Shown here: piece by piece, positions 28,813 to 29,925 of the stretch
Position numbering within the stretch: the stretch's first letter is position 1
How the letters are laid out: every line of letters starts with the position of its first letter
Assembly: GCA_036252695.1 (NCBI GenBank)
Contig: GCA_036252695.1_4122.1
DNA: 64,000 nucleotides
DNA from: a phage
Direction: 5' to 3' (one strand)
Translations under genes and position numbers: made by a program
The notes under the pieces: generated by a model
What the model was told of the DNA's origin: nothing
Seen by the model: the letters and a program-made list of their open reading frames with translations, nothing else
The model's database searches: none

Positions 28813-29925
28813 ATGAAAAAGTATTTGGTTGGCGGTTACGTCCGTGACCGTTTAATGGGCATCCGTGCAAAAGACAAAGATTATGTCATTGTTGGTGCAT
28901 CCGAATCTGATCTTAAGTACTTGCAAAGTATTGGCTATAAGCAAGTAGGTAAGGATTTCCCAGTATATCTAAGTCCAGAAGGTAATGAACACGCATTAGC
29001 CCGTACTGAGCGTAAAACTGGTACTGGATATGGTGGCTTTGAAGTGGATACAAAAGGCGTAACACTAGAACAAGATTTGTATCGCCGTGACCTTACAATT
29101 AATGCAATTGCGTATGATCCAGTACTACAAATTCACATCGATCCATACGGTGGTAAAGCTGATATCAAGAACAAGATACTACGTCATGTTTCTGACCATT
29201 TTAAAGAAGATCCATTACGCGTGTTACGTCTTGCTCGATTTGCTACTCGTTATTCAGACTTTACTATCCATGAAAGCACTGAGGAACTCGCTATTGGAAT
29301 GGTCAATAGTGGTGAGCTAAATCATCTTGTTCCTGACCGTGTTTTTGTGGAATTCGAAAAATCATTTTCTGAAGAAAAGCCTTCAAAGTTCCTTAAGACG
29401 CTAAGTAAATTTGGTTATTACGAAAAGGTGTTTAATACATCTTTGACCAAAAAGAATTTAGACCTTATTGATTATATTTCAGATAACTGTACTGATGTAT
29501 ATAAACCATATTTTCTGTGGTCTATTCTTCTTGAAAATGAAGAAGTAAATAATGATTCAGTACTTAACGGTGCTATTAAAGTTCCAGTTAAGTATGTTAA
29601 ATTTAGTAATTATATCAAACGTTTCCGTGATGATATCAAAACATTCCGTAAAAAGACCCCTATTGAAATGGGTAATATTTTATTGGATATGAATATTAAA
29701 AATAACGGAGGTGAAGAATTCCTTTATAAAGTTTTGGAATACTTCATTTTGCGAAAAGAAATTGATTTAGAACTTGAAGATCTAATTATTAAAGTTTATG
29801 ATCGTTATACTGATGTTGAATTGCCTGATATTCAGCAAATGGTCAAAGATGGTGAACTTGAAACGTCAGAAATTCGTGATTTTGTTTGTGAACTTCGTTA
29901 CGAAGCAATCAAACAAATGTTCTAA
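28813..29925 (+). CDS. cca: tRNA nucleotidyltransferase (CCA-adding enzyme / poly(A) polymerase head-domain family)
   Basis: N-terminal GGYVRDRLMG...KDKDYV head-domain signature (GGxVRD, DxD), RxxDxTINA motif, about 370 aa. Confidence 0.8.
   Translation: MKKYLVGGYVRDRLMGIRAKDKDYVIVGASESDLKYLQSIGYKQVGKDFPVYLSPEGNEHALARTERKTGTGYGGFEVDTKGVTLEQDLYRRDLTINAIAYDPVLQIHIDPYGGKADIKNKILRHVSDHFKEDPLRVLRLARFATRYSDFTIHESTEELAIGMVNSGELNHLVPDRVFVEFEKSFSEEKPSKFLKTLSKFGYYEKVFNTSLTKKNLDLIDYISDNCTDVYKPYFLWSILLENEEVNNDSVLNGAIKVPVKYVKFSNYIKRFRDDIKTFRKKTPIEMGNILLDMNIKNNGGEEFLYKVLEYFILRKEIDLELEDLIIKVYDRYTDVELPDIQQMVKDGELETSEIRDFVCELRYEAIKQMF

Follow-up and report, generated by a model that had tools for sequence, protein, structure and literature searches.

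A predicted class II CCA-adding enzyme of Cca descent, without an HD domain, in an Asteriusvirus-type jumbo phage

We analyzed a 64,000-nucleotide stretch of phage DNA (contig GCA_036252695.1_4122.1 of the NCBI GenBank assembly GCA_036252695.1; hereafter, the window), focusing on a gene at positions 28813-29925 of the + strand, which an initial annotation had described as coding for a full-length class II tRNA nucleotidyltransferase. The gene product is a complete head-neck-body-tail enzyme of Cca descent that has lost the HD module. Judging by its sequence, it is best classified as a class II CCA-adding enzyme and a member of PHROG 2244. It stands outside the ‘multifunctional CCA/phosphohydrolase’ equivalog, as it scores below the corresponding cut-off and has no HD domain. 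We consider it likely (a probability of about 0.75) that the protein is an active CCA-adding enzyme, which would complete phage tRNAs encoded without CCA and would also restore nibbled CCA ends across the entire tRNA pool of the infected cell. Over the 3 kb surrounding the gene, the window shares 99.9% identity with Escherichia phage 121Q, an Asteriusvirus jumbo myovirus of 348.5 kb, as well as with phages G17 and Sharanji. Since the window is not 121Q itself, all evidence from outside the window comes from close relatives and not from the same genome.

The gene is a single long open reading frame (ORF) of 370 codons with an ATG start and a TAA stop. Its assignment as the gene for a 370-residue CCA-adding enzyme of the class II tRNA nucleotidyltransferase type is supported by the ORF list, by Pfam, NCBIfam and PHROG matches and by 100% identity to KM507819. 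The product begins with MKKYLVGGYVRDRLMGIRAKDKDYVIVG, and its N-terminus (MKKYLVGG) is collinear with that of E. coli Cca (MKIYLVGG). BLASTP aligns residues 1-207 to Cca of E. coli K-12 (b3056) at 51% identity, with gaps of only 1-3 residues (8 in total), none of them inside the flexible loop. To analyze conservation we used an alignment of 26 homologues with identities down to 38%, while E. coli Cca residue numbering was taken from PMC6468291 and PMC2532741.

All the catalytic motifs are in place, each on the + strand. Motif A (28831-28881) comprises GGYVRD at residues 7-12, followed by the catalytic carboxylates D21-K-D23, which align to E. coli D21xD23. Thus, the GGxVRD and DxD motifs noticed in the initial annotation are indeed present. 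Moreover, the carboxylates are retained across the alignment, D23 being invariant and D21 nearly invariant among the 26 family members. Next comes the flexible loop, R67-F76 (RKTGTGYGGF, 29011-29040), identified by alignment to E. coli R65-F74. It consists of 10 residues, exactly as in E. coli, and its G72 and Y73 match E. coli G70 and Y71. Within the loop K68, G72 and F76 are invariant, while R67, Y73 and G75 are nearly so. In class II enzymes this loop of 10-12 residues between motifs A and B must be present for the terminal A to be added (PMC2532741). Motif B (RRD, residues 91-93, 29083-29091) was read directly from the sequence and is invariant in the 26 homologues. Motif C (DPYGGKAD, residues 110-117, 29140-29163), found by alignment, has invariant D110, P111, G114 and D117. 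Motif D (EDPLR, residues 132-136, 29206-29220) corresponds to E. coli E130-R134, with invariant E132, D133, P134 and R136; such an EDxxR motif serves as the amino-acid ‘template’ that selects CTP and ATP (PMC2532741, PMC6468291).

Profile searches place the protein in the Cca family. The head domain matches Pfam PolyA_pol (PF01743) with E=7e-19 and 68.8 bits (gathering score 23), and the RNA-binding domain PolyA_pol_RNAbd (PF12627) is detected with E=6e-8 and 32.8 bits (gathering score 22). The best NCBIfam model is PRK10885 (E=2e-81, 273.8 bits). PHROG 2244, ‘tRNA nucleotidyltransferase’, matches with E=6.7e-116 over nearly the entire length (residues 1-369 on profile positions 3-387 of 392). 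The E-values of the Pfam, NCBIfam and PHROG matches are far beyond chance, and a chance resemblance is thereby excluded. Four NCBIfam Cca models reach 273.8, 235, 204.8 and 197.3 bits, as opposed to only 91 bits for PcnB. Both PcnB family models remain under their cut-offs (TIGR01942, 91 versus 305.65 bits; PRK11623, 47.6 versus 702 bits). The profile search therefore sides with a tRNA nucleotidyltransferase and not with a poly(A) polymerase family. At the same time, the curated PRK10885 cut-off of 451 bits is missed, the score of 273.8 bits covering just positions 1-207 of 409; as a control, the E. coli protein scores 739.8 bits with the same model.

The fold evidence agrees with the sequence and profile evidence in supporting the class II assignment. 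An AlphaFold2 model built on the family alignment has a mean predicted local distance difference test score (pLDDT) of 93 and a predicted template modelling score (pTM) of 0.84. In Foldseek searches with this model, all significant PDB matches (46 of 46) belong to the class II tRNA nucleotidyltransferase/poly(A) polymerase group. Full-length superpositions gave template modelling (TM) scores of 0.73 for the T. maritima enzyme (3H38), 0.68 for B. stearothermophilus (1MIV) and 0.63 for the human mitochondrial enzyme (4X4W). The phage protein thus shares the seahorse-like head-neck-body-tail fold with the solved class II enzymes (T. maritima 3H38/5HC9 and the latter two; TM 0.63-0.73). It differs from them in sequence (21-23% identity) and in having a shorter body, with 370 residues versus roughly 400-440.

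The C-terminal half is where the phage protein departs from its host counterpart. Family hidden Markov models cease matching near residue 207, and the remaining part (residues 208-370, 29434-29922, + strand) was defined as the helical body/tail by profile alignment, the structural model and composition. It features a conserved family motif, MNIKNNGGEEFLYKVLEYF, and contains neither histidine nor an HD motif. The phage-family profile aligns to E. coli Cca throughout (1-369 versus 1-402), with gaps where the E. coli protein has its HD metal ligands. Opposite the ‘HD’ dyad of E. coli the phage protein has E241-N242, and nothing corresponds to the 19 E. coli residues that follow, among them the His-rich stretch. 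As the phage sequence is devoid of histidine beyond residue 171, a His...His-Asp...Asp site is impossible. Consistently, no Pfam HD match was found in the 370-residue protein. When residues 208-370 alone were compared with E. coli Cca, they matched its positions 280-402 (hhalign probability 89-92%, E=5e-7), the homologous part being residues ~247-368. The same region showed no match to the PcnB C-terminus (hhalign probability 0.2-0.4%), while the N-terminal half was readily matched to PcnB (99.3%, E=1e-20).

Taken against E. coli Cca, annotated as ‘fused CCA tRNA nucleotidyltransferase/phosphohydrolase’, the phage protein has a collinear head and neck with all the motifs and the loop, as well as homologous last ~120 residues, but is without the HD phosphohydrolase core. 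E. coli PcnB shares with it the Pol-beta head domain and motifs, yet is dissimilar in the C-terminal half. The earlier description of the protein as ‘full-length’ is correct insofar as the head, neck, body and tail are complete; however, owing to the missing HD domain the protein is 42 residues shorter than host Cca. On the basis of its sequence, neither 2',3'-cyclic phosphodiesterase nor phosphatase activity would be expected from it.

This has consequences for database names. The identical protein of 121Q, gp539 (YP_009102126.1), is called ‘tRNA nucleotidyltransferase’ in RefSeq and ‘phosphatase’ in the GenBank record; orthologues elsewhere appear as ‘multifunctional CCA protein’, ‘Appr-1-p processing domain protein’ or ‘hypothetical protein’. 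In the absence of an HD domain, records that read ‘multifunctional CCA protein’, ‘phosphatase’ or ‘2',3'-cyclic phosphodiesterase’ are over-annotated, and we rejected the ‘multifunctional/phosphatase’ identity given the missed PRK10885 cut-off and the absence of the HD domain. Among the database names only ‘tRNA nucleotidyltransferase’ fits.

Orthologues of gp539 are present in the Asteriusvirus phages G17, Sharanji, PBECO4, phAPEC6, slurp01 and others. Beyond this genus, the PHROG 2244 homologues of RaK2 (gp031), GAP32, CBB and Serratia BF are likewise HD-less, 367-374 residues long and 58-69% identical. These phages share the gene order lysozyme-HPF-...-CCA-NUDIX-glutaredoxin; they differ in genera and hosts, as well as in tRNA complements, which range from 6-7 genes to 33. 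We found ~80 clusters of HD-less homologues of 367-377 residues, many on contigs of >300 kb. Their existence shows purifying selection across a jumbo-phage clade. HD-less proteins of ~357-366 residues also occur outside the jumbo-phage group, one of them on a 1.36-Mb contig.

The initial annotation reported no tRNA gene in the window. This observation holds, as ARAGORN found no tRNA genes and the Rfam scan of the whole window returned no RNA family whatsoever. The empty Rfam result means that there is no hidden tRNA-like client close by. We therefore surveyed tRNA genes in relatives, with 121Q covered by eight loci that together make up all 348.5 kb. Its tRNA genes, seven tRNA-like genes in all, are confined to 72.6-78 kb, ~180 kb from gp539. 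The Rfam tRNA model stops at the discriminator base, which allows the three bases after it to be read straight from the sequence. CCA is encoded by Ser-UGA, Met-CAU, Asn-GUU and a weak Leu-UAA-like gene, while three of the seven (Gly-UCC, Ser-ACU and Thr-UGU) have CAA instead. Mixed ends were also found in CRJP21, G17 and JP4: Thr-UGU always has CAA, Ser-ACU has CAA, and in two of these three phages Asn-GUU ends with CAA or CAT. A Klebsiella RaK2-like phage has two CCA-less tRNAs, Arg-UCU and Ser-GCU. The suggestion that the enzyme may mature phage tRNAs encoded elsewhere thus gains support both from 121Q and from four relatives with a similar pattern.

The tRNA clusters of the relatives displayed two additional peculiarities. 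The 121Q ‘tRNA-Leu(taa)’ gene (23585-23663 of locus L005) is weak (32.6 bits), has a mostly unmatched D-arm and was not called by ARAGORN; in CRJP21, G17 and JP4 the same position is occupied by a good tRNA-Arg(UCU) (62.7 bits). It is possible that the gene has decayed in 121Q. The tRNA cluster of Klebsiella phage RCIP0023 harbours a group I intron (Rfam RF00028, 104 bits; 8042-8290 of locus L013), located just upstream of tRNA-Asn.

According to PMC11291079 (citing Zhu & Deutscher 1987) and PMC6468291, E. coli encodes CCA in every one of its tRNA genes and can do without cca, although end repair needs it. Because all the host tRNA genes encode CCA, CCA-less tRNAs represent a phage-specific demand for CCA addition. 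This demand by itself does not force a phage to carry the enzyme. In phage T4, which infects the same host species, four of the eight tRNA genes (Gln, Pro, Ser and Ile) do not encode CCA either, yet T4 is not known to carry a CCA-adding gene, and we rejected the explanation for this reason. The CCA-less tRNAs of T4 reportedly depend on host cca and RNase BN (work of Deutscher and McClain in the 1970s). The jumbo phage, by contrast, brings its own enzyme.

How the enzyme might work follows from these comparisons, from which we infer its catalytic activity, specificity, the trimming route, the identity of the clients and the presence of the same tRNA set in the window genome. The helical body/tail would bind tRNA. 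The D21/D23 two-metal centre together with the EDPLR nucleotide template would then add C74, C75 and A76 in the absence of a nucleic-acid template, the R67-F76 loop enabling the final A. The likely clients would be CCA-less phage tRNAs, such as Gly-UCC, Ser-ACU and Thr-UGU of 121Q, that read N73-C-A-A. Their 5' processing and 3' trimming would leave tRNA-N73 or tRNA-C, to which C(C)A could be added. In the CCA-less genes, N73-C-A-A is followed by A/T-rich sequence, and 3' exonucleases that stall at C could for this reason leave tRNA-C, an ideal substrate; RNase T is known to perform poorly on C ends (PMC6468291). In addition, CCA residues lost to exonuclease turnover would be re-added on any tRNA. 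The tRNA pool would in this way stay chargeable while the jumbo phage runs through its long, translation-heavy cycle. The other role initially proposed for this gene, repair of host tRNA ends damaged by nucleases, is plausible as well.

Several points weigh against an active CCA-adding enzyme in these roles. For residues 208-246, no counterpart could be detected among the characterised enzymes. The host already possesses Cca and, as T4 also has CCA-less tRNAs, the phage enzyme is not strictly required. The tRNA evidence is drawn from relatives, and the window genome differs from 121Q upstream. Finally, our literature search turned up no phage CCA-adding enzyme that had been studied biochemically; in PMC13219725 the yeast CCA enzyme is used merely as a reagent.

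Alternative explanations may concern either the role or the activity of the protein. With the activity unchanged, the selected role might be counter-defence, that is, rebuilding of tRNA 3' ends after immune or toxin attack as part of an RNA-repair kit. The damage would be inflicted by 3' trimming nucleases or by nucleotidyltransferase toxins, whose additions would have to be trimmed back first, and the partners would be Pnkp, Rnl1, RlaP and a 3'-5' exoribonuclease. Candidates for all of these are encoded by 121Q: a T4-type Rnl1 (gp438), Pnkp with a HAD phosphatase (gp443), the RlaP nucleotidyltransferase (gp506; the window copy is at 14030-16306) and an Rv2179c-like 3'-5' exoribonuclease (gp67). 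Moreover, a jumbo-phage review reports this RNA-repair set from such phages and counts the CCA-adding enzyme among RNA-repair functions (PMC7824862), AbiEii/MenT toxins target tRNA 3'-CCA ends (PMC7725324), and the Pnkp phosphatase could stand in for the end-healing chemistry of the lost HD domain. However, the repair genes are scattered, with RlaP ~15 kb away, Rnl1/Pnkp at ~55 kb and gp67 at ~200 kb, and the conserved neighbours (HPF, NUDIX and glutaredoxin) are not repair genes. Among E. coli defence systems, our analysis identified none with CCA removal as its specific action, and CCA-less phage tRNAs provide a simpler reason for the gene. We therefore regard a primarily counter-defensive role as unlikely, though it is the main rival reading. 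A more elaborate version appears, if anything, slightly less probable. It casts the HD-less enzyme as more than a duplicate of host Cca, namely as a specialised counter-defence component that, together with the exoribonuclease, Pnkp, Rnl1 and RlaP, would restore tRNA acceptor ends that immune effectors of the host had damaged or extended, while residues 208-246 could set its client range or regulation apart from those of Cca.

As for the activity, it is difficult to distinguish class II enzymes by sequence, and their C-terminal part influences specificity (PMC2532741). Split A-adding and CC-adding enzymes, very much alike, do occur in bacteria (PMC2532741), the A. aeolicus A-adding enzyme structure is among the good fold matches (4WC2, TM 0.65), and the body region 208-246 is divergent. 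The phage protein might accordingly add only A or only CC, with host Cca supplying the other step. Yet CC-adding enzymes have no flexible loop (PMC2532741), and a CC-only activity is unlikely because here the loop is of full length with the key G72 and Y73 conserved. As the loop deletion, the defining trait, is absent, we rejected the CC-adding-only identity. Against an A-only activity, the nearest relative that has been characterised adds the complete CCA. Furthermore, the 121Q annotation includes no second class II nucleotidyltransferase, the sole other nucleotidyltransferase being RlaP. All in all, a restricted activity seems very improbable. Even less credible is an enzyme that acts on mRNA, as a poly(A) polymerase or in another kind of RNA tailing, for example, by tagging host transcripts for decay. 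The head domain does bear the Pfam label ‘Poly A polymerase head domain’, all the core motifs are common to poly(A) polymerases and CCA enzymes (PMC2532741), and a NUDIX hydrolase, possibly an RNA 5'-end enzyme, is encoded immediately downstream. Nevertheless, both PcnB models score far below their cut-offs, the N-terminal part is 51% identical to Cca and the C-terminal half is Cca-type, not PcnB-type. Consequently, the poly(A) polymerase identity was rejected.

Earlier publications have reported both the gene and the role proposed for it, and in this respect the finding is ordinary. RaK2 gp031 was described in 2013 as a ‘putative CCA-adding enzyme’ with a role in maturation of the phage's own tRNAs, beside Pnk and RNA ligase (PMC3622015). 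A 2021 review of jumbo phages names the CCA-adding enzyme as the next most common among the RNA-repair nucleotidyltransferases it discusses (PMC7824862), and the Sharanji paper lists the orthologue as ‘multifunctional CCA protein’ (PMC11895373). What our analysis adds is twofold. Several database names can be corrected now that the HD domain is seen to be lost, and the mixture of CCA-encoding and CCA-less tRNA genes in Asteriusvirus-type phages gives the enzyme obvious clients.

The gene lies in a long + strand run of small, densely packed genes. The preceding 40-residue ORF stops at 28811, two bases ahead of the ATG, and a Shine-Dalgarno-like GGGGGA (28801-28806, + strand), evident from direct sequence reading, is positioned 7-12 nucleotides 5' of the start codon. 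On the upstream side it is accompanied by a LysM-lysozyme, a homologue of HPF/RaiA (ribosome hibernation) and three small proteins without annotation. Downstream, the NUDIX hydrolase, which follows immediately, is succeeded by a glutaredoxin and a weak macro-domain protein; both NUDIX and glutaredoxin also flank the gene in 121Q. The order lysozyme-HPF-...-CCA-NUDIX-glutaredoxin extends to Pectobacterium phage CBB, with an enzyme of only 59% identity. Shared clade ancestry can explain this synteny. Since it suffices, and a mechanistic link was not found, we rejected a functional operon with NUDIX and glutaredoxin. A scan of 25.5-32 kb for promoters and terminators yielded 33 promoter-like sites versus 32.9 expected. 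Hairpins at 27222-27248 and 31224-31246 may delimit a transcription unit; they were not counted as evidence.

In relation to 121Q (NC_025447.1), the window genome departs upstream of ~17 kb, and the coordinates are offset by ~2.2 kb. Upstream of the CCA gene, no phage record is identical to the window. For window positions 9-20 kb, the best database match is CRJP21 (88% coverage at 98.3% identity). By sequence, this upstream divergence suggests a mosaic or unsequenced Asteriusvirus.

A number of other genes in the window deserve mention. The ribosome-associated protein of HPF/RaiA type, so named by annotation, is encoded at 26881-27213 (+), 1.6 kb upstream of the CCA gene, and annotation shows the two genes paired in Pectobacterium phage CBB too. 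Immediately preceding the CCA gene are three adjacent ORFs of ~130-140 residues (27267-27662, 27852-28268 and 28255-28677, all +) without a Pfam match. At least two of them share the C-terminal pattern F-I/E-D-T-F-G-I-D-F/Y...Y and look like tandem paralogues. The macro/Appr-1-p ORF at 31264-31740 (+) has a weak Pfam Macro match (E=0.009, 16.4 bits, under the gathering score of 22); the Appr-1-p name was wrongly given to the CCA gene in one record (CRJP21).

The RlaP-family RNA-repair nucleotidyltransferase at 14030-16306 (+) is 758 residues long in the window versus 410 residues in 121Q (gp506). The flanks, 96% and 70% identical, surround an insertion of ~348 residues (about 14990-16033). The insertion starts with Cys, ends with ...HGN ahead of Cys and has a LAGLIDADG_3 match; by these sequence features, an intein that includes a homing endonuclease is probable.

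Finally, window positions 1218-1586 (+) code for a 122-residue protein of the cytidine/deoxycytidylate-deaminase fold with the HAE...PCxxC signature (Pfam E=8e-7). A phage ‘tRNA-specific adenosine deaminase’ is listed in the Sharanji paper (PMC11895373). An unusual tRNA-Ser with the anticodon ACU (A34) is present in 121Q (25464-25554 of locus L005), G17 and JP4. From these sequences, it is conceivable that the phages could make their own I34 tRNA-Ser.

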